Shown one piece after another: positions 2,396 through 54,500 of a stretch of DNA of 64,000 bases. The stretch lies in NCBI GenBank assembly GCA_036172245.1, contig JAYWIR010000072.1:1-64000 (forward strand). The letters are read 5' to 3'. Both the position numbers and the translations under genes were made by a program. Each line of letters begins with the position of its first letter. The stretch's first letter is position 1. Origin of the DNA: Raillietiella orientalis. Lineage: Eukaryota. The notes under the pieces were generated by a model. It saw nothing but the letters and a program-made list of their open reading frames with translations. It was not told the DNA's origin and made no database searches.

Positions 2396-3370
2396 CTCAC
2401 CCCGGAACTCACAGGTTCTGCACCCGGGCAGGAACACTCCATTACGCGCAGCACGGCGGAGGCCGGTGGCGACCGCGCCCTCCAGCCCGTCGTGCTACTT
2501 ACTGCCCGCTCGCTGGCTGAGGCGAGCAACACGGCCTCGCTTTCCCAGTCGTGATAAGGGCGATCGCGTCTTCTCTTCGTGACGTGCTGTAACGTCAACG
2601 GTCTCCAACACGACGAGAAGAGGCGCTTGTGGCTAACGCTCTGCGCCCCTTCGACTTGACGCTCCTGCAGGAGATTCACTGCATCTCAGAAGAGCAGGCT
2701 GCCGAAATCGAACGGCACGCGGCTGGAAGGCTACATTATAGTTGCGGCGTCGCTTTTCTCCTACGAGGAACTTTGGCCGAAGTGGTGCGCAGCGTTCGTT
2801 TCGACACGGAAGGTCAAGTGGGACAGCTTGTACTCAAGTGGTCAGACTTGGATTGAAAGGATTAAGATTTTCGGTACCGTTCAGAGCCAGTAGATCACTC
2901 GTTCTCACCCTACTGTGGCGCATCTCATTGCGGGAGACTTTAACGTCTACCTGCTGACCGAGAATAGCGCACACAAAAGAGAAAAGTTGCTAGCGGAAGA
3001 GATGTGCGCGTCCGTGCACGCGTGCAACTTGTTCGCTAGCAACCCTGTTATGGCAGCAACGCCGGACTTCGTATACCTTGATGAACACTTGCTATCTCGA
3101 GTAGGTCGGAGAGGTCCCGTACCGTCTGTGTTTTCAGACCACAACAGGCTCGAGTTCGAGTTGCTTCCGCCAGGCAAGGGGCGTCCAATCTGTGTTTTAA
3201 ATATTCCGGCAGACTGGCTAAGACAACCGGAGGAGGCGTAGCATCCTCGCCAGTACCTTTGTAGCTTCGCTATAACTGATCTTTCGGACTGGTACGAACT
3301 AAAAAGATCGGTCCGCAAGTTTTGCTGCCGGTTTCCCTCGCACTAGCTTTCGCGCGGCTTCGGAAAGGGT
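2396..3370 (+). mobile_element. LINE fragment: ORF1 C-terminus plus APE endonuclease domain, interrupted at the GFG site
   Basis: LLQEIH, GVAFLL, IAGDFN, FSDH motifs in ORFs 2629-2856 and 2915-3241. Confidence 0.9.
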
Positions 3371-4706
3371 TTTTCATTCGGGAAAGCCGGGGCTTTTATT
3401 ACTAAAATTTTGACATTACATAATTTTGTAATAAAGTCAATGTTGTTAAAATTTTCGTTTTTACGACGTCAGAAGTTCAGTTCAGAAGTTTAGTAGCACT
3501 TGTCCTTACCGACCCGGAGGCCGATAAGGTCCTTCACTGGCGCCGGGACGAAAAAAATAAAAGAAAACAAAAACAAAAAAAAGAAAAACGCCTGGAGGGC
3601 AAATGTTTTTGAAGTCGGCGCCAACGGCACGCTTTCTCCAAGGAGATCGCTGCCCAGTGAATGGCATTCCGGCTGGTCCTTCCTCTCCTAGACGCGGTCC
3701 ACTTCTCCAGGATACCGCGTATGCAGCAGAGCACTGCTACGCTCCCGGAGGCTGGCAAGCCGTCTCGCGTCAGGAGGCGTCTGAATAAATTTTTCGGGTC
3801 AACCTCCGGAATGTTGAGGATCAACGAGAGTCTGTCATACATTTCGCGGAGGGCAACACACTCCAGAATCAAGTGAGGGAAGGTCTCCCTTTCCCCGCAC
3901 TCTGCACAACTAGCATCCACATTCCCAATTGTCCAGCGAGACAGGCGTGCTCTGCTTAAAAGTCCCCAGTGGAGCAGAAGCAACGCCGTCTCTTGCCACT
4001 GCAGGGGAAGGGTACCGTTGTCCCATCACGCTGGGGGCCACTTCACCTTTTCCAGAGGTATACCGAGCAGCGCGCCCCAGCGTAAAAGTCCGTTCGGCGG
4101 GACACTCGGGGTACTAGCATCCGCTAGTTCCCTCGGCGTGCACGCCTTCAGTGACTTTTTCCTGCCTCCGATGAGGCAGGACACTTTCCACGATGCCTGT
4201 TGGTGGCTGTCCCGAACTTCCCTGAGGGAGGGCAGCACTGAGGCAAGGGGGGTGAAGGAATCCCACAGAAGTTTCCGTGGGTTGGAAGCGATCTCCTGGA
4301 GTGGCTGACCAGCGTGCCTCCCTCTGCGGAGACAGTAGTAGTCCTCATCGCTGGTGCCATTGATCTTCGCCCATGCGGAAACGGACTCCTGAAGCCAGGT
4401 AGTCCAGTCCGCTGGGATGCAGGAGATCCAAGGATTGTCTCTCAGAAGGGCAACCAAATTTCGCAGCTGATATCCACAATGGTTCAGGCTGCGTTCGTTG
4501 GCTACCAGGATTGAAGTCAATCCCAAGCAGCCGGTTAACCTGTGAGCAAGGAGTGTTTCCGGTGCACACCAGGGTGCTGTCCAAAACTTTGCCACAAGGG
4601 CAAGTTTTCTGGATTGAAGCTGTCGCTCAATGCGTTTCAACGTCAGGAGATCAAGTCCACCGTCCCTGCCTGGAGCGCACAAGTCTTTGAGACGGACGAG
4701 GGGCAC
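3371..4706 (-). mobile_element. LINE subfamily B, 5'-truncated (ORF2 C-terminal part plus 3' UTR)
   Basis: DLCAPGRDGGL...HWGL...CAECGERETFPHLILEC; near-identical to 47506-48900. Confidence 0.93.
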
Positions 4707-6508
4707 TCAAGTGGTCCGACTCGATCGATCTTGTTGTAACCAAAGTGTACGCGCCGAGCGGTGCTGGACGAGGGGCCGAAAAGATTGAGTTTTTCGGTAC
4801 CCTTCAAAGCCAGTGGCTGACGGGTCGGACTGCCTTCGGAAGGTAGAGTGTGCACTTCGCATGTTCTCAGGAGGCGAGTTCGTCTTGCCGGAACGGGCCA
4901 GCATCTAGAACGCCTTCGTTGCCAACCTTTTCCGCTCCCTGTATTTTGTTTGTCCACCCCCCCAGGAAGTCAAATTCTGGGCGCAACGCCTTCTACGCAA
5001 AGTGTTGTGGCGCCCTGCAAGATCCCGCGTAAGAATTAAAGACTTGGTGGCGCCGCGTCAGGATATAGGCTTGGGCATCCTAGACTTGCAAAGCATCGAT
5101 CTGCAGGTGCAGTTTCAAATGCTGGGGCTCTGTGCCAAGCTGTGGTGTACGCCGTGGTGCTTACCCGCACGCCTCATACTAAGGCGCTGCACGGGAAGCG
5201 AGGGACTGCTTACGTTGCTGCCCCACTTTCGGCATACCAGAATAGGGTTTGGCTTCCCGCTGAGTCAGATGTCCTCACTGCTGGAAGCCCAATGTTAAAT
5301 CTCCTGCCGCCCCATGAACATTTATGCATCGCGGCAGGAACCTTTTTCATCGTGGGTTGCTTGTCAAGGAACGCGATCGGAAGATCTTCGACGCCTGCGA
5401 CTTTTCCTCAGTCATCCAATGGACGAAGTCATGCAGGACAAGAAGAATACGGATCGTCTGGCCGCTACATTACTCGCCGCAGCTCTGTCTGCCCTCAGGG
5501 TAAGCAACGACAGTTGCCTACCGGCGAAATGGGAGTTCTGCACAATAGCGGGAGTGAGTAAGCTCCTCGGCTGCTGGACGACAAAGGAGCTGGTGGAAAC
5601 TGCCACTCCTCGTAATCGGGCGAAGAGCCTGCTTCGATGGAGTGAGCATTTAATTGTAACCCTTGAAGAGATAGTGCTTTCCTTCGTTTGTTTGGAGAAC
5701 TCCGTGTTCCCGTTAAAGTGGAAACAAGATGTGCTGCACTTTTTACACTGGGGCTTTCACTTTAACCGGCAGAGAAGCATAGTTTCCGGCGAAGCCGCTT
5801 TGCCAAACTGTTTGAGGTGCGGGGAGACTGAGTCTTTTCCGCACCTCTTGCTGGACTGCGGTGATCTCCGTGAACTGTGGTGAAGGCTGATTCCAGCCAT
5901 CCTGCCGCAGGGAGGCACTGCCATTGATGTGTTGCAGCGATTCTTCAGCAGAAATGCATTTTCGGTAGGCGCAATTGTCGCAACCTTGTGTTGTGTTCGC
6001 GCCATCGTGAAGGCCCGCTACGCTCTGGAGTTGTCAGCACAGCAAAGTGAGGCCCACCGGTTTGCCTTAGAATCCATGGAAAAGGCTGCTAGGTGACCTC
6101 ATCTCCGTCACGAGGTTAAAGAGGACATCGCCGGCATCCATCGCCGGTTTACAGGCTCTTAAGAACAGCTTAATCCGGTGATCACTACGTCCTGAAGCCC
6201 ACATACACCACTTCTCCGCTCGCCCTGCTTAAATGCCGGTGACATTACTTTTATCCTTGTGCGAACCAGAGTAATCCCAAAGACCCTTGTTCCGGCGTCC
6301 CCCATTGATTTCTTTTTCTTTTGTTTTTGCTTGTTTGTGTTCCTAGTTTCCACACTCTGTTCCGTGTTATTCTGGCCTGCGTGCCAGCAATTTTCTGATG
6401 ATCCTTGTTCAGTCGTCGATTGGGAGCATGGTTCCTAGCTGGTTTATTTTATATAAGTGTTTTCATTTTTATTATATAAAATAAACGCCCGGAGTGATCG
6501 GGTGAGAA
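4707..6508 (+). mobile_element. LINE subfamily C: short EN piece (4707-4830) fused by internal deletion to post-RT ORF2 and 3' UTR
   Basis: KWSDSIDLVVTKVYAPSG jumps to SDCLRKVE; CLRCGETESFPHLLLDC; 3' end aataaacgcccggagtgatcgggtgagaa. Confidence 0.9.
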
Positions 6509-8423
6509 GTCTCTTGCGCTTGTTCTGCAGAGATCACGTGAATCTCCTGCAGCAGCGCAAGGTCGTAGGGTTCCAGAAGAGCGACCATGTCTCGTCTTCT
6601 GCCGGCGTCTATCTTGTTCACGTTCCAAATGGCGATGCGCAGACGACGGCGGAAGGAGATTCCCGGCATTACTGCTGGCTAGACGAAGGTGTGAGGGAGC
6701 CCGCCTCTTGCAAGAGGGGCGTGATATCCATGGAAGTTTTGGCCTTCTCAGGCACCTGAAACACCTGTTCGGCCTCCACATACTCCATCCCTTCCTTGTC
6801 CGAACATGAGAGTCTCTCGGGCGACGGGTCCCGGGAATTTCCCACGCTCATAGCACACTCGCTTCCGGAAGCCATCTCTTCCCCTTCGTCGGGGAAGACG
6901 ATCTTCCGTAGCTTTGTTGAATTTCGTCCAGCCTTTTTGCGGGGTGCGGTGGAAACGGAGGCTGCGCTTCCAGCCTCCACCTCAGGGTCGGAAGTAGGAG
7001 ACTCCTGAGGGGAGGACGGACACCTTACGGCCTTCCTACTTGCTTCAGAGGGGGCTGGCTGCGACCAGGCAGCCAGCTCCTGCGCCGCACGCGCGAAAGC
7101 TGCGTCATCGATGTTGGTGTCGATGACGGACGCCGCCGCCGGCTCGCTCCCCTCGCTGTTGACAGAGTCAACAGAGGTGTGGTCGTCGGTAGCGGCGAGT
7201 TCTTTCTGGCAGCGTTGGGTAACATCAAGAATGCGTTCCACGACGACGCTGCATTCTTAAATTATCGAGCTACCCTGCTCTTTCTTCTTCTGTTGGTAAT
7301 TTTTTACTCCAATCTTCTCTCCTTTTTGCTTTTTCTTGCCGTTGCCACCTGCCACCTAGGCTCTTGTTTGGTTCCCTCGACTTTATCGGCCTTGATTGCC
7401 GTGGTCTCGAGTGCGCCCTGGGCCTTGGGCGCGGGTGGCACGGCCTTCGCGGCTGCTTTTACCGCCAGCCTTTTCTGCAGCAACCGGGCGCGTTATTCAA
7501 GTTTTCTCTTTGAAACCACCCACACACCTGCTTTGGGGCACACCTCCCCCGTGTGACCCATTGTGCCTTATGCTTTGCACTGCACGTTTGGACACCACTT
7601 TTTGAGGTGGCCCGAGTATTGCAGAATCCGCAGTATTTCGGCTTTCCCATATACCAGAGGTCGACGGTTTCGCCATCGACCACCAGTTTGTGGGGAAGAG
7701 TGCAGCCCTCTTGAACGGTCACGCGTGCAGCCGTGAAGCCGTGCTGCATCCCTGTGTAGTCCTCAAAGGGACTAACTTTCGTCCACAGCGCGTGAACCGT
7801 ATCGTATTGCTCCAACGCGGCGCGAACCTGTTCCTTGCGCATCCGCGCGGTGACGCCTTATAGGTGGACCACCATGCTGCGGTCCACCGTAGTGGGGAGA
7901 AGCCTGCGCGTCCCCATCACCACGAGAGTTTTTAGCTGTGGTTGGGCCAACTTTGCTTGTTTGCAGATGACCTCAACGTACTGACCCCCGCTGCGGATGG
8001 TCATAGCGATGAGCTCCTCCTCCTTAACAACGAGAGCCCGAATCCTTTTCGAAAAAATGCGCGCACTCTCTGAACAGTATAGATTGCCTACTTTGTAGAG
8101 CAATGAGGGTTTAAACCCCTCCTCCAGGTAGGCTGACCATTCCGCAGTGGCTGCAGGCTCTGGCGCCTCCACAACGGTGCTCCACGTTCGCGCTGCAGCG
8201 GCGATCGATTCTTTGGGGGCGGATCCCCCACCTCCATCGTCTCTAAGGACGATGTTGCCGCCGCTTCCTGGCTCTCCATCGCTTCTGGAGGAGGCGCTGT
8301 CACTGCCACCTGGCCTTCCCTGGTGGTCGTTTCAGGCATCGCTGCCTGGTCGACTACCGAACCACACTACGCTTGCACTAAGGGAGACTTTCTGGCACGA
8401 GGAGCACCGAGAAAAGACGTCTG
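6509..8423 (-). mobile_element. LINE 5' half: 5' UTR, ORF1 (gag-like, two CCHC knuckles, frameshifted) and start of ORF2 EN
   Basis: 5' motif cagacgtcttttctc at ~8409-8423; GFKPSLLYKVG, PHKLVVDGETVDLWYMGKPKYCGFC; TAATG overlap at 6669; WNVN...LLQEIH. Confidence 0.92.
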
Positions 8424-8429
8424 CCCTAG

Positions 8430-32264: not shown

Positions 32265-32288
32265 TCAAATCCTTTACGCGCGTTAGGA

Positions 32289-33424
32289 CAGGCGTATTTT
32301 CTCGTTGCTCCTTGTGCCAGAAACTTTGCCTAGGTGCAAGCATTGTGTGGTTCGGTGGTCGAACAGGCCTGAGAAGAACAACAGTGAGTGTCAGGAGGTG
32401 GCGGCAACGTCGTTATCAGTGGCGATGAAAGTGCGGGCATCGGCACCCACATTGTAGTTCCCCGCTGCAGCGCGGGTGTTAAGTGCCGTCGTAACGACAC
32501 CATTACCGGCAGGATCGGTGGAATATTCAGCCTATGTGGAGGAGGGGAACAACCCCTCACTGATCTACAGGGTAGGCAATCATTAATGTTCTAAAAGCGT
32601 GCGCCAATTCTCGAGAGGGATGAATCCTCTCAATGTACAAAAGGAGGAGCTCTGCGCTTTGACCATCCGCAGCGGGGGGCAGTACGTTGAGAGATCTGAA
32701 AATACGAAGATCTGGCCCAACGTCTGACCAAAACCAACGTGGTCATGGAAACAGGCAGACAGCCTTCCGGTCCCCATTAAGACGGACCCCAGTATGGTGG
32801 TCCACCTTTTAGAAGTGACCGCGCGAATGCCGATAGATTGAGTACGCGCCGCGTTGGGAGAACAAGGCACGGTCCATGCAGTGTAAACCAAGCCTAGTCC
32901 TTTCGAAAACCATACTAAACTTCAATGCGGCTTGATGGCTGCACGAGTAACCATAAGGCTCTACCCTTCTTCACAAAATGGTATTTGTTGGCGGAAGCGT
33001 CGATCTCTGGTACGTGGGAAAGCCCAAATTCTGTGACTTCTGCAACGAGTCGGGACACCTCAAAAGGAGATGCCCCAACGTACAGTGTCAAGTATTCGGG
33101 ACAATGGGCCACACAATGGAGGTGCTGTCAAAAGCTGCTGTGCGTAGGGTTTCCGTAAGGAACCTAAAAAACGCTTCCAGCTAATACAAAAAGGCTGGCC
33201 GCAAAACCTGCCGCTAAAGCTGTGCCACCCGCGCCCATGTTTCAGCACTCACTTGAAACCGCGGCAAAGTACGCCGAAAAGGTAGAGAGAATCGGCGAGG
33301 AACCCTGGTAGCAAGGTACAAAACCGAAAAGTTGGAAAGAGAAAGCCGACTAGAAAAGAAACTCGCCCACTGAAAGAAAATATAAGAGGGTAGCGAGATA
33401 AGGAAAGAATGCAGCGTCGTCGTA
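32289..33424 (+). mobile_element. LINE 5' UTR plus decayed ORF1
   Basis: 5' UTR homologous to the 8423 and 49668 copies; VDLWYVGKPKFCDFCNESGHLKRRC. Confidence 0.88.
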
Positions 33425-34440
33425 TATTACTCGGTTGCGCCTGTAGGTTTATTAATAATATCGTCTGGGAACTCTGCTCCCAAGCAAGGGGAACAGAATA
33501 TGGTAAAGAGGGCTCCCGGCTCCCAGGCCGGGCACACTGAGAGTTCGGAACGATAGGGAGAGGATAATAAATAAATAAATAGGGTGGAAAAATGGGGACA
33601 GGGGTATGCAGTCCAGCCGTTCTTATTCTCAGCGGAGGCGGTGAATGCCGGCAATCTCCATTCTCACTTTTGTTGCGAGGTGTGACCACCTGGCAGCCAT
33701 TTGCCGCTTGCAGTCTGCAGTGTCGGGGACCGATGTTATAACCGCTCGCACCTGCAATACGTGGCGGGCCCTGACAATGGCGCAGACGCAGCAGATGATT
33801 GCGAAGACAGCTCCAAGAGAAAGACCGCTACGCGTGAAGAAGTGGCGCATCCAATCCATTGTGGTGTGTCCGGGGTGCAGGAGCGCTGAAGACAGCCGCC
33901 GCCACAGCTCATGGAGGGCAGCGCATTCAAATAGCAAATGCGGAGGCGTTTCCACCGCTTCGCATGTTGCACAGTTCGAAGAAGCAATTCCCTAGGAAAC
34001 CAGGTGCGCCCGCTGGTTGCAGCACAGACCCCAATGCACCAGCAGAAGAGCGTCTTCATTCCAACGAAGGGTGAAGACATTCGCGTCCAAGCACGCAGAA
34101 GGGACCACAAGTTCTTCGGTGGGCACCCCGAGGAGCTCCCTCCACAAAGAAGTCCCTTGGCACGAAACCGAGGGGGGCAGCGTCTGCCAGCTCGCAAGTC
34201 CGCCAGCCGCCCAGCAGTCAGGTTTCGCCTGCGATTCCACAAGCGACCTCCCACTTCGCAGGTAGGTCACTGTCGTCTCGCATCATCAGTGCAGACAGTG
34301 ATTCGGCGAGTGACGTAGCGGCTAGGCGTGTCCACTGGTCCTGGTCTTCCAGCACCTCCCTCACTGCACAGTATGAGGAAAGGTCCACGTAACGGAGTTC
34401 CAAACGGGACACATTCTTTTGCGTTGCACAGGACGATAAG
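33425..34440 (-). mobile_element. LINE 3' part (C-related subfamily)
   Basis: VHWGLCCN, CATCEAVETPPHLLFEC; degenerate 3' terminus at ~33425. Confidence 0.88.
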
Positions 34441-34625
34441 GCCATCACCATCATTAGTATGATGCGTGGAATCGCCTCTTAAAGGCAGCTGCGTATGTCC
34501 TCTTGGAATGTTGACGGGCTAGGTAGCTAAAGCAAGAAGCGTAGCGTGGCCGACACCCTGCGACCTTTCGACCTGATACTTCTTCAAAAGGTTCACGCTC
34601 TCAGAGAAGAAGACGTCCAGGAGAT
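34441..34625 (+). mobile_element. LINE fragment: ORF1/ORF2 junction and EN start, interrupted at the QEI site
   Basis: SWNVDGLG...DTLRPFDLILLQKVHALREEDVQEI; homologous to 38290-38475. Confidence 0.85.
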
Positions 34626-37600
34626 TTCTCAGCAGGTTACGCCGAAGAGTTCATTTCATATAACATAAACACAAACAATCATATAAAATAAACCAGTTGG
34701 GAACCATGATCCCAACCGACGAATGAACAAGGATCAATATAAGATTGCTGGCACGCAGGCCAGAATAACAGTCTTGTTAACAATGTGTGGGGACAACGAA
34801 TACAAACAAACAAAAACAAAAGAAAAAGAAAACAATGAGGTACGCTGGGACAAGGGTCTTTGGGATCGCTCTGGTGCGTATCGGGATAAAAGTAATACAC
34901 CGAAATTTTAGCAGAGCGATAGGGGAATGGGTATGGGTGGGCAACAGATCAAAGTGGTCACCTATAACGCCGTTCCTGAAAGTCTGATGACACGCAATGG
35001 ATGCCGGCGATGTCCTGTTTGACCTCGTAACGAAGATAAAGCCACCTAGCAGCCTTTTTATAAATTATGCTGCAAACCGGTGAGCTTCCCTTCGCAGCGC
35101 TGGCAACCACAGGGCGTAGTGGGTGTTCACGATAACACGAATCCAACACATGGCTGTGACAATCGCGACTACCGAAAATACATTTCTGCTAAAGAAGCTT
35201 CGCGGCACATCAATGGCAGTGCCTTCCTGCGGCAGGATGGCTTTCGCCACAGTTCACGGAGGTTACCGCAGTCCAAAAAGAGCTGCGGAAAAGACTCGAT
35301 CTCTCCGCACCTCGAACAGTTTTGCAAAGCAGCTCCCACGGAAACGCTGCTACGCTCCAGATTACAGTGTGAAAAGAGCAGAAAATCTTGTTTCCACTTT
35401 GAGGGGAACACAGAGCTGTCCAAACAAACGGGGAGAACCACTCTTCGGGGTTACACTTAAATGCTCACTCCACCGAAGCAGGCCCTTGGCCCGATTACGA
35501 GGAGTTGCAGTTTCCACCAGCTTCTTTGCCGTCCAGCCGCCGAGGAGCATACTGATTCCCGCTATTATACAGTAGAACTCCCATTTCACCTGTAGGCAAC
35601 TGTCGTTGCTTAACTTGAAGGCCAGACAGCGCTGCAGCGAGTGGTGTGTCGGCCCGACGATCCTTCTTCTTCTTGTCCTGCATGACTTCGTCCTTTGGAT
35701 GACTGAGGAGGAGTCGCAGGCTTCAAAGATCTTCCGGGCGCGTTCCTAGCGAAGCTGCTCATGATAAAAAAGATTCCTGCCGCCATAAATTAATGTTCAT
35801 GGGGCGGCAGGAGATCCAACATTGGGATTTTAGCAGTGAGTACAGCTGCCTCAGCGAAAAACCAAACCCTATTCTGGTGTGCAGAAAGTAAAGCAGCAAC
35901 GAAAGCAGTCCCTCGCTTCCCGTGCAGCGCCTCAGTTTAAGGCATGCGGGTAAGCATCACGGCGTACACCACAGCTCGGGACAGAGCCGCAGCATACGAA
36001 GCTGCACCTGCAGCTCGATGCTTTTTCAGTCCAGGATGCCCAATCCTGCATCCTGAGGCGGCGCCACCAAGTCTTTCAGTCATACGCGGGACCTTGCAGC
36101 CCTCACGACGCTTTGCGTAGAAGGCGATGCGCTCAAACTTTGACTTCCTGGAGGGGTAAGCAAACAAAAAACAGGGGTAGAAGGAGGAAGTAACAAAGGT
36201 GTTTTAGATTCTGGCCTTTTGCGTCAAGACGAACTCGCCTCCTGAGAACGGGCCAAGTGCACGCTCTGCCTTATGAAGGCAGTCCGACCACGCTTCTGAG
36301 GTGCAGAAGTCGCCCAACCGCACGCCAAGGCACCTCAGGTACCTGCACGTGTAGATCCCTAGGTGGATATAGTCGGACTGCCCCTCCCACGTCGCTCCAA
36401 CCGGAACAACCATGCTGTTTCTCCTGTTGACGCTCACGCCCGCAGCGCGACGGATCAACTCAAAGAAATCTTCGCTCGACGCCGCCGGGGTGGACATGGG
36501 AAACAGGAGAAGCACGTCGTCGGCATAGGCTGCTACGGCCGGCGTACCTGGACAGGAGCTCGGCAGGTTGGCTAGCGTCAGCCTGTAAGCCTCCAGCACC
36601 ATTTCAAAATAGATGCTAAGGAGCAGCGGTGTCAAGCTATCGCCCTGTTTAATTCCTCGCCTAACCGGCACGCCGTACACGCGATAGCCACTGAAAACAA
36701 TGGATATAATCGCGTGGCTCCAGGAGGAGTGCAAGTACGCCAACAGGGATGCCGGAAGACCCAGACGTTCAAAGAGCTCAAGAAGAAGCTTTTGGTTCAC
36801 GCAATCAAAAGAATTGTACAAATCGACTGCAACTGCAAAGGCTACTGGGGTTTCGCTTTGCGACCCGTGCCTCCGTTAGTGAGAGATCGAAGGCGTCGCT
36901 TCCGCATGACGATCCATCGCCACGCGATGATTCAATGGTAGCCATGTGCGGATGAACAAGAGGTTCGCGTCCATGGACCGCCCAGGAACAGCATAGGTCT
37001 GCTCCGGAATCACCAAAGACTTCGCGATCCTCCCCATCCGCGCCACCCAAAGTTTCGAGAACAACTTGACGTCCGGGTTCACTAATGTGATCGGACGCCA
37101 ATTGCTCAGTTAGCGGAAATCTCTGCCTTTCGGCAGGTGACGAACCTTCCCTGAGTGAAGCGAGGCGGGGACATCGTACTCGTCTCGCATTAGCGACGAG
37201 AGTTGGAGCACCAGAGGGATGAGCTCCTCCGCAAAGCACTGGAAGAATTCCGCGAGGAGTCCTTCCTCGCCTGGCGCTTTTCGACTCTTTAGCCATGAGA
37301 TGGCCGAAGGAAATTACTCTGCCGTGAAGGGCTAATCAAGACGCGCGCGTGCCACCTCGTCTACAACAGTTGCATCAATCGTTAGAAGTAGCTCGAAGAG
37401 ACTGCGTTCCGTCGGTGCCTCTGCATACAGAGAAGAGTAATAGCGCCTGACTACCCGTCGCATGTCTGTTCGAGCCGAGCATTACCGGTCCTGGTCGTCG
37501 AGCAGATCTGTCTCTACAGACTGCCAAACATGACGCTCGGCCTTTGCCTTGTACTCGGATAATCGACCAACGTCCGCGCGCCTGGAGAAGGAGCAGGCCT

Positions 37601-37849
37601 GCAGAAAGACTCTGCGGTTGGCTACACCCTCTCCGAAGCCGCGCGGAAGCTATTGCAATGCATACCGACAGCAAAACTCGCGGATCGATCTTTTCAGATT
37701 GTCCCAATCCGATAGCTAACTTATCGCAAAGAATTGGCCATGTAGCACAAAACTGCATGGCCGACTTAACAGAAACACACAAGTACGTGCGAACACGCAC
37801 GCACAAAGATGCTCAATCGCGGACGCGGTGAGACTAAGAAACACGTCTG
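34626..37849 (-). mobile_element. LINE subfamily C with both termini but ORF1 and EN deleted
   Basis: 5' motif cagacgtgtttctt at 37836-37849 joined to post-EN DWDNLKRSIREFC; RGIKQGDSLTP, AYADD; 3' UTR matches 6160-6508. Confidence 0.9.
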
Positions 37850-38591
37850 TACTGTGGGAGCGCACGAGGTCGAGAGGCTCCCACGAGGTTTTAAGAAGGC
37901 GGCGGAGGAATTCGCGGCCACTTTAATGCAGCTGCCTAAGTCTGTATAGAAGGCCGTGAGACGTCCGGCGGAAGCCAAAGGAGCGGAAACTTCTGAGTCC
38001 GAGGCGAAAGCCGGAAACGCTCCCACCGTCGCCCTCCCGAAGAGGAAGGCGGGCCGTAGGTCCCGCAAACCTATGCGCGTTGCTGCCCCGCAGGCTGAGG
38101 AGGAGGAAACGCGCTCGGGTAGCGAGGAGGCGATGTTTGCGATGTCGCGTGATCCCTCCCTAAAAAGCGTCCGGTCCGATCTTCCGTTCGACCTAATTCA
38201 GGCTGCTGACGTTCAGGTCGTTGCCGAAACGCCGACTATGCAGGTGGACATCGACCAGCCGACTCCCGAACAGGAGCCCGCAACACAATCGCCAGCATCA
38301 TCATTAGCATGATCCGTGGAATCGCTTCTTACCGGTAGCTGCGTTTAGGCTGTTGGAATGTCAACGGGCTGCGTAGCGAAAGCAAGAGGCGTAGCATGGC
38401 CGACACCCTGCGACCTTTCCGTCTGGCTCTACTCCAAGAGGTTCACCCTCATAGGGGAGATAACGTACAGGAAATCGAGAGGCTCACAGGGGTGAGGCTA
38501 CATTCGCGTTCCGGTGGAGACCATTCCCGAAAAGTGGTCTTTCTGCTGAAGCCAGACGTCGCAAATGCGATGCGCACTGTACACTTCGATG
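37850..38591 (+). mobile_element. LINE fragment: ORF1 C-terminus plus EN start
   Basis: ATGA stop-start overlap at ~38309-38312; CWNVNGLRS, ALLQEVH. Confidence 0.88.
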
Positions 38592-39189: not shown

Positions 39190-41865
39190 CCTGTGTCCTT
39201 CTAGGGAGCGGAGGTGGTTTGGCATTGCTCAGCGGTCTAGTTAGTGCGAAGGTATTCGGTGCTTTTGTCTGGTGTGTAGGAGCGCCGGTGCCCCACGAAA
39301 CAAATGCCTGAGGACACCGCGATGGAAATCAGGGGAGGAGAGGTGACTTCCTCGCCACCACCCATGAAAGTGAGGGTGTCCGCCCACAAGGAATCCGGGG
39401 CACTTGCCCCATCGGATTCGGGGGAAACCGTCCCTTCGCGACCCTCTTCGGCAGCGACGAGGAGTTGGAGTGCCGTCGTTCCTGCAATATCCCCTGCTGC
39501 AATAGCGGAGCAGATTGCCTACAAGGACAGCGGCTACAAACCGTCGCTGAACCACAAGGTAGGCAGCGTGTTCGACGAGAAAATTGCACGCTAATTTCAA
39601 ATGGAGTAGCAAAGACTGAACGTGAGGGACGAAGACATCGAAGGCCTCTCCGTCCTTAGTGGGGGGCACGGCTTGAGCTGACTTGCACAGAGGCAAGTCT
39701 GGAACAGCGCCTGCTAAACAACCCCATTACGGTAATCGCCGCAGGATCTTCCCTGTGACAGAGGACCGGTCCGTCGTGGTCCACCTCACGGGCGTATCAC
39801 TCCGAATGGACAAAACCAGCGTCCATAAGAAGTTGTCAAAACACAGCAGTGTGCACGCGTATTGGGCCAAATCCAATGTGGTCGGAACGTACGAAAGGAT
39901 ATTCAGTGAAATGGCCGCTGCCCGCGTCGCAATACCGGAGAATAATGGGTTTCCCCACAAACTAAATATCGGCGAAGAAAAAGTCGATGTTAGGTGCGTG
40001 GGAAAGCCCCAGTATTGTAGCAATTGCAATGCTACAGGGCACTTAAAAAAGCTGTGCCATAACATCCAATGCCACTTATGTGGAAAAAAGGGCTACATCC
40101 GCAAGGTGTGCCCAAAAGAGAAATCCCGGTCCCTTTCGCTGCCAAAAAGGCAAAAGGGAAACAATCGAGAGAGACAAATACCATGGAGCAGGCTGTAAGG
40201 AGCCAGATGCCAGTCCCTAAGCCATTCCAGCAAACGTAAGTTCAGAGCACTCCCGACGACGCTCGCGACGGCGAAGGCTGGCAGATGGTACAGCCCAGAT
40301 GGAAGCCTGGGAGTAACAAACGATGCGCGGGGAAAACAAAAACGCAGCGCAAAAAACCGTGCCGCGAAAAACTCCGCTCTTCTTCAATAACATTAGAGCG
40401 TGTGGAGGCACTCGATGCCACCACCGGGCGAGCAATTCCCCCCTTGCGTCCACCGAAGCTACGACGGTCGATGACGAACCCTCTGGAGAAACAGAGGGGG
40501 AACCAGGCGCCGCGCTCAACGCGATCAACGAGGCCGCCTTCCAGCAGGCGGTGGAAGAACTCGAGGCAGAACTGCAAGGCCGTGAGAAGAAGTCGCGGAT
40601 AGGCTTACCAAGACCGGCCGCGAGGAAGAATCCGGATGCAGGAACTGCGTCCTCAACGGAGGCGCCACCAAAGATGACGGGACGCAAGTCCTAGAATCCC
40701 AGGAGGTCCGTACGGATCAAGAAGGAGGAGCATGAAATGGCACCCGAGGGGGAAGCCGGCAACGTGAGACGCGAGGGTGGGAATCTCTCATTCCCAGACA
40801 CCGTGCAGCTGGCGACCCTCATGGAGGAGGAAGTACAGGTGGGTAAAACCCTTCTTCCTCTGCACGGCCCTAAAGAAGGCTCGGCCTCCATGAAGGAGGG
40901 AGAAGCGGTGCGCAACGCACCCCCTCCTCCTAGCGTCCCGCCCCAAAAGGTGGCGGGAGCCCAATTGTTACTTTCCCAGGATTTACATCTGGACTCGCCT
41001 GTCGCCGTAGGAACCGCGTAGCTTGCTGGAACGTCAACGGGCTGCGCGACGACGGAAACAGGCGGGATTCGGCCGACACCCTGCGCGACTTCGAACTGGC
41101 GCTCCTGCAGGAGATCCACGTGATCACCGCGGAGAACGCCCAAGAGATCGAAAGGATCGCAGAGGGTCGTCTGTTTTTGCAATGCGGCGCTCGCAACACC
41201 TGTGGCATCACCTTTTTTATGAAGCCAGCAGTCGCCGCCTTCGTCAAGGACGTACGCTTCGACAACGACAGTCGGGATGGCCAGCTCATCCTTAGGTGAT
41301 CCGACTCGATCGACCATGTCGTGACCAATGTTTACGCTTTGAGCTAGGGATGCGGGTACGGGGAACGTTTCCGGTTCCTCGAAACTCTGATGCGGGACTG
41401 GCTGGCGGAGACAAACGTACGCAAAGTGCATCTGATCGGTGATGATTTCAACATCCGCCTGCTCTCATGTGTGCCTTGCGAACAAAAAGACGCAGGCAAC
41501 GAGCTGTGCACTGCTATGCGCACGCGCAACTTGTTGGGGGACCTACCGGAAATTGTCCAAAGCGTAGACCACGTCTTGCTTGACGCCAACCTGTGCCCAC
41601 GGGTCAGCAGACGAGGGAAACTTCCGTCGACGCTATCGGACCATTTCCGGTTGATATTCGAGCTTATGCCTCGCGACAAAGGACCACCATCCAGAGCGTC
41701 TCGTGTCCCTCGGGGACAGAACGCGCATCTCGGGTGCGGCGGAACATCTCCGCCAAGTACTGGGAGGCGTCATCCTCCGGAATCTCTAATTCTAAGACCG
41801 CATGGTTTCGGTCCGCGAGCTCTGCGAGGAGTTTTCTGTGCACAGCCTGCCCCAGGGATTTGGTG
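39190..41865 (+). mobile_element. LINE 5' half: ORF1 plus EN, interrupted at the GFG site
   Basis: MPED start at 39305; GYKPSLNHKVG; CSNCNATGHLKKLC and CHLCGKKGYIRKVC; ALLQEIH, IGDDFN, LSDH. Confidence 0.92.
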
Positions 41866-43030
41866 TTGTCACCCGGGTACGCTTGGAGCGTTGATTTCAA
41901 AAAAACTCTCTACCATCGGTGGTATGAGGTTCCACTGCGGCCTTAGACACGCCACTTGTCGAGACACCAGGACGCAGCCCGACGTGGTACTCCCCGACAG
42001 CAAAAGGGGATAAAGGAAAAAACAAAAAGAAAAATCAAAGGCATAAACAAACAGAAAAAAAAAAAAAAAATTTGGAGGGAAGGGAAGTGATCACGGGACG
42101 CTATGAAGAGGGCCCATCCGTCGAAGGAAGCCCTCTAGGTCTGTTCGCATTCTTCCCAGATGTGGCCATCGGGCAGCTCTCCGCAAGAAGCGTACTGCGT
42201 GCTGGAAGACTTCCCTCTCGTTCCAATCTACATCTTCGCTGCTGGCATCGCTCCATGCCGCCACGATGCCTCGAACGCAGCACAGGACTGCAAGGGCTGC
42301 TGCTGGCTGCAAGGCGTCCCGCAGGAAGAGGAGGCGGAAAACGTCTCTGTGTTCACTGCCCGTAGGGAGCCCGAGGGTCGTCCCGAACCGTTCGCAAAGG
42401 GGTAGGAGGGCATCACAATACAATATAAGGTAGAGGAGCGACTTCCCCTCCCCGCACCTTGCACACTCAGGCCTTACACTTCCCCGCGTCCAGTGGAAGC
42501 GGCGCGCGTTGCAGGGTAGACCCCAGTGCAACAGTAGCAGCGCCGTCTCTTGCCACTTTAGAGGAAGAAGCCTGGATCCGATGAGAACTGGAGGCCACTT
42601 CAGGTCATCCTTCGGGATGCCGAGCAGCTCAACCCATCTCAGAAATTCACGCGGGGGGGCACTAGGGGTCGTGGCGTCTGCCAGTTCTCCCATGGTCCAA
42701 CCGCTCATCTTTTTTTCTTTTCCTGCGATTCGGCAGGAAACTTGTCACTTTGGCGTCCAGCCGCTGGTTAGCGCCTACCGTAGGAAGAAAGCGTCGAACC
42801 TGAAGGGGTGGTCTTCGCCTACGTGCTTCTTGCGGGACAATCCAGAGTGCTCCGTAGGGTGCAGCAGGCGTTGGGGCCGAATCGCAGGCGGTTGCAATTT
42901 TCGGTTCCTGGGTTGTTCAGGTTGGCCCACGTCGCAACGGATTCCTCCAGCCATGCGGAGGAGTTGGCGGCGCTGCATAACGTCCAGCCGTTTTCTTTCA
43001 CTAGGGCTTCGATGCGTCCAAGGAGGAGGC
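41866..43030 (-). mobile_element. LINE subfamily D, 5'-truncated 3' part
   Basis: ORF 42091-42708 closely matches 60340-61000; CARCGEGKSLLYLILYC. Confidence 0.92.
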
Positions 43031-43099
43031 CGCATCTCCTGAATTTCCTGCCGGGGCACAGAAGGAAAGTCGCGAGTCCTTGCGTCGTGCATACACGGC

Positions 43100-45640
43100 T
43101 GGCGAGGATGCGGGCTGGAGCGCACCAGAGCGTGTTCCATGTCTTGGATGAAGGAAGAGGATTTTGGCAATGGTAAGGGAATCAGGCTGATGCTCTTTGT
43201 TTATGGGTTCTTTGGCTGTTGGGTTAATTTCCAGGCTTGACGCTCGGCCCGGGCTTGATCTTCGGTCAGGCGACGGACATTGGAGGTCCTCTCGTACCGT
43301 CGGGCCTGTAAATAGGCCGTATGGTTGCGAGCCCCCTCCTTAAATCCGTGGCGAGCGGACGGGTTTTTCCTTCGCTCCCCAGTGAGTCGACAGGAAGCGG
43401 GTGTTTTGTGGTGTTTTTTGTGTGGAACATCTTTGTTTTCCGATATGAGCGATGCCTGAGGAAATCACGATGGAGGGGAGCCTTGCCTACCCCCACAGCC
43501 TACAGAAAAAGGGGCGTACGCCCCGGAATCGCCCTCGCCTCCCAAGGCGAGGAGCTGGAGCACCATCGTGACCGCGCCTAGCGAGCAGGCCATGGCCTAG
43601 ATGGTGGCCTACCGGACAGCTGGGTACAAGCCCAGCTTAATGTACCAGGTAGGCAATCTCTTTGACGGGCGAACTGCACGCGCTTTTTCGAAGGCGCTGC
43701 AGAACGCCAACGTATTAGAGAAGGATATTGACGGTCTATCCGTGCTCAGCGGGGATCAGCGCGTCGAGGATGTCTGTAAGCACATCACCTTTGCGCAAAG
43801 CTTTATCACTACCCCGCTGAATGTGGACATGCGCAAGATCCTGCCAGTCATGATGGACCGCTCCGTAGGGGTCCATCTGACTGGTATCACCAGCCGCATG
43901 ACGCGGTATGCGGTTGGTGATTAGCTGAAAAAATACGGCGAAGTACACGCGCTATGGCCAAAGGCCACAATCTTTGATGATTACGATAGCCTTTTCGGAG
44001 GGCAGGCCGCCGCGCGTGTGACAATTAAGAAGGATAGTGGGCTTCCCCACAAACTAGAGGTTAATGACGAAGTCTTAGAACTCTGGTAAGTTTGGCAACC
44101 CCGCTTTTGTGGCCACTGCAATGCAGTAGGACACCTTCGTAAGAGGTGCCCGAACATTGTGTGCCACTAATGCGGGGAGAAGGGCAACGTGCGTCGCGTG
44201 TGCCCTAAACTCCGCACTCCGGTGCCGCCTGCCGCCAAGAAAGCGCAGGTAAAACGCGGAAAATTGATCGAAAGACGAAAAAGAGATACTGGCCGCCAGC
44301 AACCGCAAGCCCTTGTTCCTCTTACACAGGCGTCGCAAGAAAAACCTTCCGAAGACGCGGGATTCCAGGACGGCTGGAAGCTGGTTAAGGCCAGAAAGGA
44401 AAACAGGGTGCCCCCGCGGAACCCGCGAAGGCGGTAAAAAAGACCACCGGCAAGGTGAAAAAAACCTGGGATGCGCTCCAAGACTCTGCGTGAATGTACG
44501 GTGGCACTGGAACGCATAGCCGTTCCCGAGACTGCCACCCGGGGCGACGAACCTCCCATCGCCGTTTCCGCCGTGCCCGAGGTTCGCGAACGCGAACCCT
44601 CTGTGCAAACAGGAGCAAACGGTCCAAGCCGAAGAAACTGCGTTCGCGCAGGCGGCGGAAGAGCTTGCGGCCACGCTGGCAGACAGTGAGAACCACTCAC
44701 CCAAGGCCGTGTGAAGGCCGGCTCCGGCGAAGAAGGCCCCACAGGTGAGTTTGATCTGAAGGCCGAAAGTACATCCTGCTCCTCGAAGGCACCCTTCAGG
44801 AAGTCGGGAAGGAATTCCCAGAAACCCAGGAGGCACCTCCCGTCCACAAGCGAGGAGGAGAATTAGGAAGGTAGCGGAAGCGTGGGAATCCCGGAGGGGG
44901 AACTCTCACCCTCGGAAGCCGTCGGGCCGGCCACCCAATGGAGGAGGGTGAGCAGGGGGACGAAGTCCTCCCTGCAGTCGCCGAGGATGAACAGCACCTC
45001 CCATGGAGGAGGGATAACAGGTAGGCGCCAATCCACCTGAGGGTGACCCGCTCGAGGCGCCGTTACCCATGGAGGGGGGGGAACAGGTGCAGTCAGCGCC
45101 TTACCCTCCTCCTCCACCTTTCGCCCAGCCCCAACAGGTGGCAAACGGCGCATCGCCATCTTACCAGGAGTAACACCTGGGCTCGCTAGTCGCCATCGGA
45201 TTCGCGCAGCCAGTTGGAACGTAAACCGGCTGCGCGACGACAAAAACAGGCGAGATACGTCCGACACCCTGCATGAGGTCGACCAAGCCCTGTTGCAGGA
45301 GATCCACGTGATCACGGCGGCAGACGCCCAGGAGATCGAGACGATCGCGAGAAGTCGGTTGCATTAAAGATACGGCCTCCTCAACACCTGCGGGGTCGCG
45401 TTCTTCGTGAAGTCAGCCACCGAAGCTGCAGTGAAGGGCGTGCGCTTCGCTGGCGACGGTCGGGTCGGTCAGCTGATTCTCAGCTGGTCCGACTTCATCA
45501 AACTGATCGTCACGAATGTGTACGCACCCAGCGGAAAACAAGGATACAGCGACCGCACTAGGTTACTGGAATCCCGGAAGCGCGACTGGCTGGCGGAGAC
45601 AAACGAACTGAAGGCTAACCTGATAGCGGGAGATTTCAAT
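43100..45640 (+). mobile_element. LINE subfamily D 5' half: 5' region, ORF1, EN to GDFN
   Basis: MPEE start at ~43452; GYKPSLMYQVG; CGHCNAVGHLRKRC; NVYAPSG, IAGDFN. Confidence 0.9.
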
Positions 45641-51304: not shown

Positions 51305-51559
51305 TTTACACCCGGGTGCGCCGGGGCGTTTGTTTCTTTAATAAAAAAAAAAAAAAATAAACAAGCAAGTGTAGGGCTATCTCCCCTACAGTGTTCAGAA
51401 CATGTTCTTCTGAACTCGCCGAGTGGGCAGCACGCAGGTTCCCAAGGTCGACTCGGCAGCGGAGGGGGAAGGGACAAATAGAAAAAAACAAAAAGAAAAC
51501 ACTATTTACAAAAGCAGAGAGGGGTTGGGGAAGGGATCACGTTCCGCTGGAGACGTCCT

Positions 51560-54500
51560 CTACATCCTTTGCAGGATGCCGGCAAGTTCAAACTGCATGT
51601 GTCCCAGATGGGTCCATCTGGCTGCCGTCCTCAAGAAGCGCAGGGCGTAGCACAAGATGTCCCTATCGTTCGGTCCACCAGTGGCGGTGCTCCAAGCCGC
51701 TACAATCCCTCGTAAGCAGCAGAGGGCTGCAAGGGCTGCGGCAGGCGAAAGGGCGTTGCGCACGAAGAGGCGCTTTAAAACGTCTCTTGGAGCGTGCAAG
51801 GGTGCACCAACGGCTGTTGCAAAGCGCAACCACAGGGGCCGGAGGGCAACACAGTCAACGAGCAGGTGCGGGAGAGTTTCTCGTTCCCCGCACCTGACAC
51901 AGTTTGGGTCCACAACCCCCCTCGTCCAATGAGAGCGGCGGGCGTTGCTGGGGAGTCCCCAGTGCAACACCAGGAACGCCGACTCCTGCCACTTTAGGGG
52001 AAGGGCCCGAGTATTCCTCAGCACTGAGGGCCACTCGAGTTCATCCCGCGGGATGCACAGCAGCTCGCCCCAGCGCAACAGTCCTCTCGGTGGGGAACTT
52101 GGGATCGCGGCATCAGCAAGCTGACCCGTGGTCCAAACACCTTGTTCTTTCTCAGTGTCCCTGATCGTACACGGGACCTCCCACATGGCCGGCTGGCTAC
52201 TGCCCAGTTGTTCTTTGAGGTGGGACAGAGCTGTGGCAAGGGAGGTCTTCTCAGCCCACGCACTCAAGGCGGGCTGCACGATGATGTCCTGCAGCGAGCG
52301 GCTCTTATGATAGGAGTGCAGCATTCGCTGCCGCAACTCCGGGCTCGCTTTCTCGATCTGGGCCCACGTGCGAAGGCTTTCCCGCAACCAGGAAGTGCCG
52401 TTCGCGGGCCGGCAGGAGATCCAGGTGTTCTTCCTGGTCAGCTTCGCCACTCGCCGAAGAGCCAGTCCGCAGTGGAACAGGTACCGGCGTTTGCGGCGCG
52501 CTAGGAAGGTAGACAGTCCCGCGCAGCCGCCGACTCGCTGAACCAGGCATCGTGCAGGCTCGCACCAGCTGGCGCTCCACAACTTCGCCACCAGGGCGAT
52601 TGTTCGGAACTGCAGCTGCAGTTCGAGACGCTCCAGCGTGAGGAGGCCAAGGCCCCCATCGCGACGAGGGGCGCACAAGTCCTTCCAACGCGCGCGGGGC
52701 CTTCCTCTGCCCCAGATGGCGATTCTGAGGAGGTCCTTTGTACGTGTTCTCACACCACGGGGTGGGGGACAAACAAAAACCAAGGAGCGAAACAGGGGGG
52801 CCACGAAAGTGTTCCACAGCACGGCCCGTTCCGGCAAGAAGAACTTGCCATCCAGGAACGGGCCGAACGCTCTCTCGGCTTTTTGGAGGCAGCAAGACCA
52901 TTGTTCCGCTGGGGAGTAGTCCCCCAACGGCACACCGAGGTACTTAAGGTACCGTACCGTGGGGATCCCCAAGCGAGACCAGTCTAGCTGCCCTGCCCAC
53001 GAGGAACCGACTGCAACAACGGACGACTTTGCTCTGTTCACCTCCAGTCCTGTCCCGCGACGCAGCAGCTCGAAAAAGTTTTCGACCGCCGACGCCGGGG
53101 TGGACATGGGGAGCAGCAGCAGAAGATCGTCCGCATACGCCGCTAAGGCCGGTGTACCTAAGCACACGCGCGGCAGGCGACCAAGAGTCTCCCTGAATGC
53201 CCTCAGCACCAACTCGAAGTAGGTGCTGAAGAGCAAGGGGCTCAAGCTATCACCCTGCCGTATCCCGCGGCAAACCGGCACACCGAACACGTTCCTTCCC
53301 CTGAAAGAAATGTTGGTCAGCGCGTCGCGCCAGCAAGAGCGCAGAAAGGCCAATAAGGAGGCCGGGAAGCCCAAGCGCTCCAGAAGCTCCAGCAGGAGCT
53401 CCTAGTCGACACTGTCGAATGCTTTCCGCAAATCGACAGCGACCGCGAGGGCCCCTTCTCTGTCCCGACTATTCCGCGAACCACCAGCGGACGTCCCGCA
53501 AATCGGGCTGCCGACCTTGTTTCCTCCATTCATTCTGGTTCTTTGAAGTTCGAACCAGGTGTTCGCGAAGTGCAGGTTGGCGTCCATGCTTCGCCCGGGA
53601 ACAGCGTAGGTCTGCTCCGGGCTGATGAAGCTTTCCGCCACCCGCCTTATTCGCTCCGACCATAGCTTCGCAACCAGCTTGGCGTCCGCGTTCAGTACGG
53701 TAATCGGACGCCAATTGCTGAGGTTCCGTAAGTCTCCTCTTTTCGGTAGGAGACGCATACGTGCCGATCGGAAGGAGGCGGGAACGTCTCCTGTCTCCCG
53801 GATCAGCAGCGTTAGCCGCTGCACCAGGGGAGCCAGCTCCGCCGCGAAGCACTGAAAAAACTCCGCGGGCAGGCCGTCTTCCCCCAGTGACTTCCGCCTT
53901 TTGAGCTTCCCGATTGCGGTGATGATTTCACCCATCGTAAAAGGCTCGTCCAGGCGTACTCTCTCTTCTTCCCCGATCGCCGGGGCACCTTCCGGAAGCA
54001 AAAATTGGGAAAACTCCCGGTCCGGAGGCACCCTGGTGTACAGGGAAGAATAATAGCCGCGCACTAGGCTACTCACCTCTGCCGGGGCCAAGTGCTCTTG
54101 GCCTTCGTCGTCCAGCAGGCTGGGCGACCCCGATTGCCAGGCAAGCCGCTCGGCCCCGGCTTTAAATTCCGCCAGTCTTCGGACGTCTGGTGTTCGGGAG
54201 TAACGACGGGCCTGCAGCCCCGTCGTTACTCCCGCCCTATCGTTCCGAACACCTTCTCCAAATCCTTTCAAGAGACGGTCCATGGGGAACTGTTGGCAGA
54301 ACTCTCGCACCGAGACTTTCAAATCGTCCCAGTCGTCGGGCGTCTGCAGGCTGAAACCTCGCAAGAACGCGCGGAGGTGTTCCGCTGCGCCTGGCTTGGT
54401 CAGCCAGTCCCCCGGTAGACGCCACGCCTGCGCGGGGGGCCCCCTGTCAAGCGGGCGAATGACGAGTTGCACACGGGAGTGGTCGAAGACTAACGACTGT

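Follow-up and report, generated by a model that had tools for sequence, protein, structure and literature searches.

Organization of the LINE nest

We analyzed a 64,000-nucleotide (nt) stretch of Raillietiella orientalis DNA (assembly GCA_036172245.1, contig JAYWIR010000072.1, positions 1 to 64,000 of the forward strand; hereafter the window), which is a dense nest of a single family of long interspersed nuclear elements (LINEs) encoding an apurinic-type (APE) endonuclease (EN) and a reverse transcriptase (RT). Within this nest, two truncated elements of one subfamily, referred to as subfamily C, abut the same nucleotide of the EN gene in two other copies of the family. Our comparison of insert and host sequences supports an origin of these junctions in independent events, and recurrent use of an exact site is likewise supported at a second position of the EN gene. 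All counts of tails, hosts and occupied sites given below refer to the 64-kb window.

Mapping with tblastn and blastn placed LINE-family fragments in both orientations over approximately 50 kb of the window, as LINEs nested in LINEs of this one family, with a GC content of 52-62% in the LINE part versus 38-46% in the non-LINE block. Pfam analysis identified the APE-type EN domain (PF03372) at 62471-63613 on the minus strand (E value 5e-11, 43.2 bits against a cut-off of 24.5) and the RT domain (PF00078) at 51560-53401, also on the minus strand (40.3 bits against a cut-off of 29.6). A C-terminal zf-RVT domain (PF13966; 23.5 bits, cut-off 27.5) and a CCHC knuckle in open reading frame (ORF) 1 (PF00098; 17.6 bits, cut-off 20.8) scored under their thresholds. 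The neighbors returned by an Atlas search were generic RVT_1 and zf-RVT clusters only, and a protein search with the RT C-terminus returned distant plant L1-like matches together with one 72%-identical protein on a 2.9-kb contig.

The family has several hallmarks of APE-type LINEs, including an N-terminal apurinic-like EN in ORF2, an RT, target-site duplication (TSD) and frequent 5' truncation: 15 of the 16 elements having a 3' end are 5'-truncated or cut, and one is full length. This full-length element (FL; Table 1) is bordered by a 12-bp TSD (51293-51304 and 56815-56826; GTCGGCACTGCT and GTCGTCGCTGCT, identical at 10 of 12 positions), and a sister of its host copy runs uninterrupted through the insertion point. 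Ordinary target-primed reverse transcription (TPRT) therefore operates in the window.

A poly(A) or simple-repeat 3' end, a further feature of APE-type LINEs, was found at none of the 16 tails mapped in the window. All 16 show the conserved arrangement AATAAACGCCC-short inverted repeat-GGGTGAGAA, intact or decayed, and terminate in …GAGAA, …GAAAA or a decayed version, 3' of a conserved AATAAACG…GGGTG block. The inverted repeat reads CCCGG…CCGGG and is followed by TGAGAA (for example at 6480-6508, 24166-24195, 27569-27600, 51305-51334 and 60111-60141). For the tail of subfamily C copy A, the hairpin has a predicted energy of -9.6 kcal/mol (z -2.2). We rejected a strong 3' hairpin structure as a feature of the tails, as an equivalent stem appeared in 5 of 13 folded tails (A, e10, e11, e34 and FL), with z values ranging from -2.2 to +0.8.

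Table 1. Elements, hosts and comparison copies in the window. Sites 1 and 2 are the positions in the EN gene described in the text; a caret marks the cut.
Feature	Coordinates	Strand	Description
Subfamily C copy A	4823..6508	+	5'-truncated LINE; ORF2 C-terminal part to 6150, 3' untranslated region (UTR) 6151-6508
Copy A 3' terminal tail	6480..6508	+	AATAAACGCCC-hairpin-GGGTGAGAA, without poly(A); tail type present at 13 further 3' ends
Host A	6509..8428	-	Intact 5' end (~8428), ORF1 7532-8229, EN residues 2-71 (6511-6717), cut at site 1
Subfamily C copy B	34626..37731	-	5'-truncated; end of EN region to 3' tail at 34626
Host B	34445..34625	+	EN N-terminal fragment, residues ~20-72 (tblastn 34468-34626), cut at site 1
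5'UTR/ORF1 piece left of host B	32285..33424	+	May or may not belong to the element of the EN fragment
e17	33425..34246	-	C-related, 5'-truncated, antisense; tail adjoins the ORF1 piece at another site; tblastn 34246-33644
S1	37887..38591	+	Sister of host B EN; site 1 intact (CAGGAAATCGAG at 38468), empty-site comparison
h23	39250..41865	+	Host interrupted at site 2 (…GGATTTGGTG^); 5' end intact
e24	41866..43350	-	Inserted antisense in h23 at site 2, with its tail at 41866
h33	57493..60110	+	Host interrupted at site 2 (…GGATTTGGGG^), at the same nucleotide as h23; 5' end intact
e34	60111..61067	-	Tail at 60111, antisense in h33 at site 2; sister of e24 (support 99/98)
e3	3370..4704	-	Other subfamily; tail antisense in h2 (2447-3369, +), 4 nt downstream of site 2
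FL	51305..56814	-	5.5 kb; the one full-length element with flanks on both sides; antisense in RT region of plus-strand host
FL host	49770-51304 and 56815-57474	+	Flanks on both sides of FL

Two subfamily C elements at the same nucleotide of the EN gene

On the host sense strand, junction A reads ...GAACAAGCGCAAGAGAC followed by TTCTCACCCG (6509/6508, with the host on the minus strand), and junction B reads ...GAAGACGTCCAGGAGAT followed by TTCTCAGCAGG (34625/34626). When all 10 EN N-terminal copies are aligned, host A ends in …CAAGAGAC and host B in …CAGGAGAT at the same column, and the reverse complement of the tail follows directly past the host (TTCTCACCC… in A, TTCTCAGCAGG… in B). This position, hereafter site 1, corresponds to EN codon ~72, 12 codons past the catalytic LLQE motif, and both inserts lie antisense to their hosts. 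Eight of the 10 copies are uninterrupted here, with the consensus …C(A/G)(A/G)GA(G/A)AT-CGA/CAA…. The last base of host A is a C versus a T elsewhere, which is compatible with a transition or with an offset of 1 nt.

Both inserts belong to the same subfamily. Copies A and B are 82.2% identical (1360 of 1654 aligned bases; 4823-6508 versus 36289-34626), their 3' UTRs (6151-6508 and 34983-34626) are 78.4% identical, and the subfamily C 3' UTR has no match elsewhere in the window. In a tree of 17 RT-C-terminal copies the two are sisters with support 100/100, and e17 is their next relative (100/100). The original prediction had claimed, from the junction sequences, that inserts of one subfamily with matching 3' UTRs meet the same nucleotide of their hosts in antisense orientation, and each element of that claim holds in the alignment and in the tree.

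The limits of the two copies were set by homology. In copy A, the RT C-terminal residues (to residue 613) finish at 6150 by tblastn. Copy B is covered by tblastn matches at 37730-36795 and 36791-35247, with its tail at 34655-34626, and its 5' limit at 37731 was set by the match of 37626-37731 to 3370-3265. A 118-nt plus-strand EN fragment (4706-4823, residues ~120-157) separates copy A from the 5' end of e3, and may either belong to copy A, which would then carry an internal deletion, or be a remnant of its own.

Insert and host divergence at site 1

A composite of host and insert that was duplicated as one block predicts equal divergence on both sides of the junction. Our analysis revealed a marked inequality: identity is 80.0% over the final 186 nt of the inserts versus 54.6% over the first 186 nt of the hosts (Fisher test, 2.4e-7), and the whole insert is 82.2% identical versus 67% for host EN plus ORF1 (Fisher test, 1.6e-20). 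Measured in 100-nt steps, identity is 70-89% along the insert, 49-61% in host EN and 60-80% in host ORF1, with the fall located at the junction. This inequality points to two events, and the sequence comparison thus supports the view that the two junctions are independent rather than copies of one ancestral junction.

Phylogenetic analysis of the host side is consistent with this. The EN fragment of host B shares 79% identity with S1, a copy uninterrupted at the site (38290-38475), and forms a clade with it (38265-38475) with support 100/100, and the nearest copies to host A EN are h33 (74%) and FL (73%). A clade of hosts A and B, a test group named after inspection of the tree, was rejected in the EN segment by the approximately unbiased (AU) test (p 7.6e-12), at a cost of 49 log-likelihood units. 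Indices of repeat-induced point mutation and of CpG decay were normal, with no signature able to skew divergence, and we therefore ruled out both processes as distorters of these values. S1 was also considered as the missing half of host B and rejected, as it overlaps host B EN at 79% identity and begins further upstream. S1 is itself cut at EN residue ~110 by the antisense tail of e21 (3' end 38592).

Several observations weigh against two separate target-primed insertions. Among the 8 copies that have the 5'UTR/ORF1 region, host A (7500-8428) has as its sister the piece to the left of host B (32285-33200; support 100/99, 70% identity), a relationship that is also expected of a duplicated composite and that would arise in about 1 in 7 cases under independent insertions. 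An 85-nt stretch of the 5'UTR is 83.5% identical between the two hosts, a value like that of the inserts. In addition, neither the missing half of either host nor a TSD was found in the window beyond the 5' ends of copies A and B, and the full insertion anatomy is therefore demonstrated for FL alone. Either host B is of mosaic origin, or the ORF1 piece and the EN fragment of 181 nt come from different elements; the two pieces are parted by the nested e17 and by approximately 200 nt of unassigned sequence.

In light of the sisterhood of host A and the ORF1 piece, a scenario of one ancestral junction survives at low probability. Here, a single junction of host and subfamily C insert would have been duplicated as an inverted block approximately 28 kb apart, with the host side later replaced or evolving faster, or with the insert homogenized by gene conversion. 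The colinearity of regions A (4823-8428) and B (36289-32284), which share insert, EN, ORF1 and 5' end in the same order, fits this scenario as well as the 5' sisterhood and the 85-nt match do, and conversion tracts naturally end at the limit of homology. However, host divergence is two to three times that of the insert over approximately 1.2 kb (Jukes-Cantor distances of 0.40-0.70 versus 0.19-0.25), and even the 5'UTR/ORF1 parts, at 0.40, are about twice as divergent as the inserts. Moreover, identity falls precisely at the junction, host B EN is 79% identical to an uncut copy and 55% to host A, the AU test rejects the host clade, and gene conversion between sequences of ~55-70% identity is unlikely. 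The pattern of inserts closer to each other than their hosts also recurs at site 2, where the hosts belong to different clades.

Together, the identity step at the junction and the AU rejection in EN bear out the original prediction in its argument against a simple segmental duplication, and the separate phylogenies of insert (100/100 for the pair) and host (clade rejected) disagree. Its description of the hosts as clearly different subfamilies stands for the 186 nt beside the junction (54.6% identity) and fails in the 5'UTR/ORF1 region, where they are sisters.

A second hotspot in the EN gene

A second position of the EN gene, hereafter site 2 (…GGATTTGGNG^, …GGATT(T/C)GGNG^A…), lies ~720 nt downstream of site 1 and is used by three different subfamilies. 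Three tails are located here with certainty, those of e24, e34 and e3 (Table 1; junctions 41865/41866, 60110/60111 and 3369/3370). The sister elements e24 and e34 reproduce the pattern seen at site 1, with insert identities of 72.8-81.6% versus 60.7-65.2% for their hosts (1.1e-11). A clade of h23 and h33 was rejected (AU 6e-7), and h23 groups with support 100/100 with c63613, whose site 2 is intact.

Two further tails, those of e15 (32264, junction 32264/32265) and e32 (57474, junction 57474/57475), are probably also at site 2. The spacers that follow them (32265-32285, 21 nt, after e15; 57475-57492, 18 nt, after e32) resemble antisense site-2 sequence and retain the host reading …KGF… and …PESP…, and directly beyond each spacer another element begins on the same strand, with its 5' end intact. 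These stacks, with their short spacers, probably reflect repeated use of one site beside an earlier insertion. A sixth junction (43350/43351) involves a 5' end: x43 begins at 43351, directly against the site-2 region of e24 itself (43338-43350), and this join is 13 nt upstream of the nick position, an offset similar to that of a TSD. Counting the probable tails and the x43 5' end, site 2 is occupied in 6 of the 10 copies that reach it, versus 2 of 10 for site 1. Recurrent use of an exact site is thus supported at a second position within the window.

Given two hotspots, it is highly improbable that two random insertions simply coincided at site 1. A pair within 1 nt does arise in 4.8% of 200,000 simulations with 14 junctions placed uniformly on a 5.5-kb host, and EN preference is loose in most L1-like LINEs. 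Nevertheless, the coinciding pair also consists of sister elements in one orientation, and for a pair of sisters named beforehand the probability of coincidence is ~3 in 5500 by simple arithmetic. The second hotspot adds three certain and three probable events, and a triple within 4 nt together with a separate pair within 1 nt occurs among 14 random sites on a 5.5-kb host with P = 2e-5 in simulation.

Three other readings of single tails were rejected. The tail of e10 lies ~85 nt upstream of site 2; the flank of e29 is not an EN site, as its host x45 has no EN homology there; and x45 and the tail at 57474 cannot be read as one element with a TSD, as the expected continuation of the host is absent. 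No other pair in the window is as young as e3 and e29 (3623-3922 versus 47850-48149, 92% identical). Their flanks part a few bases past the tail, and both start with CCC(T/C)TTC.

Orientation and site preference

All 11 hosts that could be identified by homology at the flank of a tail carry the insert in antisense orientation (two-sided binomial, ~0.001 by arithmetic). Of the five remaining tails, four are probably antisense as well, and the fifth is in non-LINE DNA. A possible exception concerns a 5' junction, where the 5' end of x45 (~45641) adjoins the 'GDFN' codons of x43 EN on the same strand.

One explanation of the antisense rule, as distinct from the exact sites, is differential survival, in which sense nested copies would form direct repeats and be lost by recombination. 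The absence of sense inserts (15 of 15 are antisense when the probable cases are included) and the age of the copies, which show 16-45% pairwise divergence, are compatible with such a process. On the other hand, it leaves the nucleotide-exact recurrence unexplained, and tandem same-strand stacks persist in the window (e15 followed by host B, and e32 followed by h33). We consider survival a rather improbable source of the rule.

The distribution of all 16 tails indicates a preference, not strict specificity. Site 1 holds two tails, and site 2 holds three certain and two probable ones, for a total of 7 of 16 at the hotspots. A fixed base and orientation at the 3' junction, as in strictly specific elements, is found for copies A and B and for e24 and e34, all antisense; a concentration of nearly all copies in one target, as in the R1, R2 and Tx1 type, is not found. 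Several points run counter to targeting by sequence. The other nine tails lie elsewhere, including the one in non-LINE DNA, and no nick motif unites the two hotspots with the nine sites used once (16 junctions). Although the 9-mer (A/G)GAGATCGA at site 1 is unique in the full-length element, its core, CAGGAGATC, recurs 33 nt upstream (LLQEIH codons) without an insertion; sequence recognition, if any, therefore needs more than this core. Finally, only two subfamily C copies have 3' ends in the window, and the C-related e17 is inserted at another site. Both C tails are at site 1 versus none of the 14 others (~0.008), or 2 of 3 versus 0 of 13 if e17 is counted as C (~0.025; both by arithmetic), and it is only thinly suggested by these sequences that site 1 belongs to subfamily C. 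The proposal of sequence-specific targeting of a conserved site in other LINEs is thus upheld as regards recurrent use of an exact site, which extends to site 2; specificity in the sense of R1 and R2 is unestablished, with 9 of 16 tails elsewhere and the upstream core unused.

The same distribution bears on an alternative in which the insertions are independent and the site is determined outside the EN. In the rDNA-specific element R1, read-through transcripts containing downstream flank are described as annealing to the target. By analogy, read-through RNA from a master copy already resident at the site could anneal through its flank to the nicked target in other copies, or the state of transcription, R-loops or repair could expose the host sense strand at pause sites. 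The antisense orientation in 11 of 11 hosts at no fewer than nine positions would then be a strand-wide property rather than that of one motif, and the lack of a motif common to the sites would be expected. Sister inserts share sites (A and B, e24 and e34) as if these were inherited from a master location, and the re-use of site 2 beside an earlier tail, with spacers of 18 and 21 nt, suggests that a recognized feature survives on the flank. An antisense bias relative to transcription at the insertion stage has been reported for human L1 (PMC5717806). However, no complementarity or microhomology between tail and target was found at either site, apart from an inverted match of 4 bp (GAGA/TCTC) at site 1, and the presence of three subfamilies at site 2 would call for several masters in one site or for a real EN preference. 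We regard this as the main alternative, although an unlikely one.

Proposed mechanism

The mechanism that we favor, and consider reasonably probable, is target-primed insertion with a strong preference for site and strand that is set by the EN or ribonucleoprotein (RNP) of the element. According to this model, two separate TPRT events by closely related subfamily C elements would have produced junctions A and B. The sense strand of a resident LINE would be nicked between the T and the C of …CA(G/A)GAGAT^CGA…, and the freed 3'-OH would prime cDNA synthesis directly on the last base of the subfamily C RNA, without microhomology. As the insert tail is joined to the 3' end of the host sense strand, the first nick would be on that strand. 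The new copy would end up antisense and 5'-truncated, with the EN gene of the host split. Site 1 would be one of at least two preferred nick sites in the relatives of the element, with site 2 used more often and by several subfamilies, and the choice of site and strand would come most simply from the element's own EN/RNP. The sequence itself shows the junctions and their independence, the second hotspot, the orientation rule and the 12-bp TSD of the one complete insertion; we infer the strand that is nicked, the role of EN/RNP specificity in setting the site, and the link of site 1 to subfamily C.

Successive antisense insertions at one internal site would build an onion-like structure in which the other halves of the hosts are displaced far outward; the nests do not close within the window. 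Such a structure predicts many intact 5' ends without 3' halves, as observed: most of the plus-strand elements at 38-60 kb have an intact 5' end and no 3' half. Twin priming or template switching on the second strand was considered as a source of the units composed of a host 5' half and an antisense tail, and was provisionally set aside as unneeded, given that the TSD of FL and the 13-nt offset at x43 fit classical nesting and that the onion-like structure would account for the distant host halves.

A more elaborate version of this model is tentative, and we consider it rather unlikely. In this version, each sub-lineage would have its own nucleotide-exact homing site in the EN gene of its siblings (codon ~72 for subfamily C, and ~240 codons further on for others). 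Entry, always backwards, would disable the EN of a competitor and at the same time create a fresh target, and a recognition element persisting on the flank would allow re-use of the site, leaving spacers of 13-21 nt. The element would thus act as a parasite of its own family that builds centromere-like nests, with the site possibly inherited via read-through RNA.

Other features of the window

Intact 5' ends were identified in eight elements (8428, 32285, 28420, 39250, 43351, 45645, 56814 and 57493), which share a (G)AGCGGACGTGTTTTTC-like leader. Along the cluster, 5' halves and 3' halves segregate by strand. At 2395/2396, the tail of e1 adjoins the apparent reverse complement of the tail of another element (CTCACCCCGG…), in a tail-to-tail arrangement.

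The LINE nest is interrupted by an AT-rich block of ~12 kb (10562-22050; 38-46% GC) that has no LINE homology and no Pfam or Rfam matches. This block harbors a large imperfect inverted repeat, with arms at ~14602-16405 and 17916-19317 that are 75-86% complementary. The tail of e7 (10561) adjoins the block and is the sole LINE 3' end against non-LINE DNA. Pfam analysis of 10 further ORFs, including those in the AT-rich block, detected no families, and an Rfam scan of the window returned no matches. No public sequencing runs were listed for 5000-7400. A metagenome scan with the tail pattern identified five loci, none with homology to LINEs or to the window, and these were rejected as relatives and read as chance matches.

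Comparison with known systems

Self-nesting has been described for several LINEs. Zepp and ZeppL, L1-type LINEs of green algae (Coccomyxa/Chlorella and Chlamydomonas), insert into existing copies and form nested clusters of tens of kb with a GC content above that of their surroundings, present once per chromosome as putative centromeres (PMC3446292, PMC8226300, PMC9940879). The window resembles them in its GC-rich nested clusters generated by insertion into existing copies, a likeness by description and not by tree. Zepp carries poly(A), unlike the copies in the window. Reviews of Zepp describe tandem arrays of 3' ends, and in their accessible parts mention neither a nucleotide site in the EN ORF nor an antisense rule; similarly, the accessible text of a 2025 preprint on ZeppL and CENH3 mentions no target site.

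Cnl1 of Cryptococcus 'inserts preferentially within itself', and is described as forming nested arrays in tandem orientation at subtelomeres (PMC9942834; bioRxiv 10.1101/2021.08.11.455996). Compared by description, the window shares self-nesting with Cnl1 and differs from it in that the inserts are antisense and their sites lie inside EN. Tandem self-nesting of the Cnl1 kind was not observed, as 11 of 11 hosts are antisense, and the only two same-strand stacks are explained by re-use of one antisense site.

Nested transposable elements (TEs) in the human genome also insert into one another at specific positions and in specific orientations, with a single-nucleotide hotspot in Alu, as reported by Levy, Schwartz and Ast 2010 (PMC2836564). 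As presented there, these hotspots are statistical, drawn from hundreds of thousands of events and based on a loose L1 EN motif, whereas in the window a few exact sites in the element's own coding sequence take 7 of 16 tails.

At the other extreme are the strictly sequence-specific APE LINEs, such as R1, TRAS/SART and the Tx1 group (the last of which targets other repeats), with nearly all of their copies in one target. The elements in the window share with them a precise base at the 3' junction, a constant orientation, independence from poly(A) and a repeat as target, and differ from them in that 9 of 16 tails are elsewhere.

Neither base-exact antisense hotspots in the element's own EN ORF nor re-use of one site with TSD-sized spacers was encountered in the literature searched, a non-exhaustive set; the primary Zepp papers (Higashiyama 1997 and Yamamoto 2003) may cover them. 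In several algae and fungi, clusters of self-nesting LINEs mark the centromeres or the chromosome ends, and how a new copy finds an old one is left unstated in the literature searched. For one family, the window offers an answer at base level, namely a few exact, strand-specific nick sites in its own EN gene. If this holds genome-wide, it would provide a simple mechanism of cluster growth and a natural case of target specificity shifting from one subfamily to another, and the two sites would be short, defined substrates on which to assay the endonuclease directly; otherwise, the window would be merely a local example of the nested-TE hotspots known from human repeats. Taking these comparisons together, the elements described here are best read as a variant of the known self-nesting LINEs, Zepp and Cnl1.

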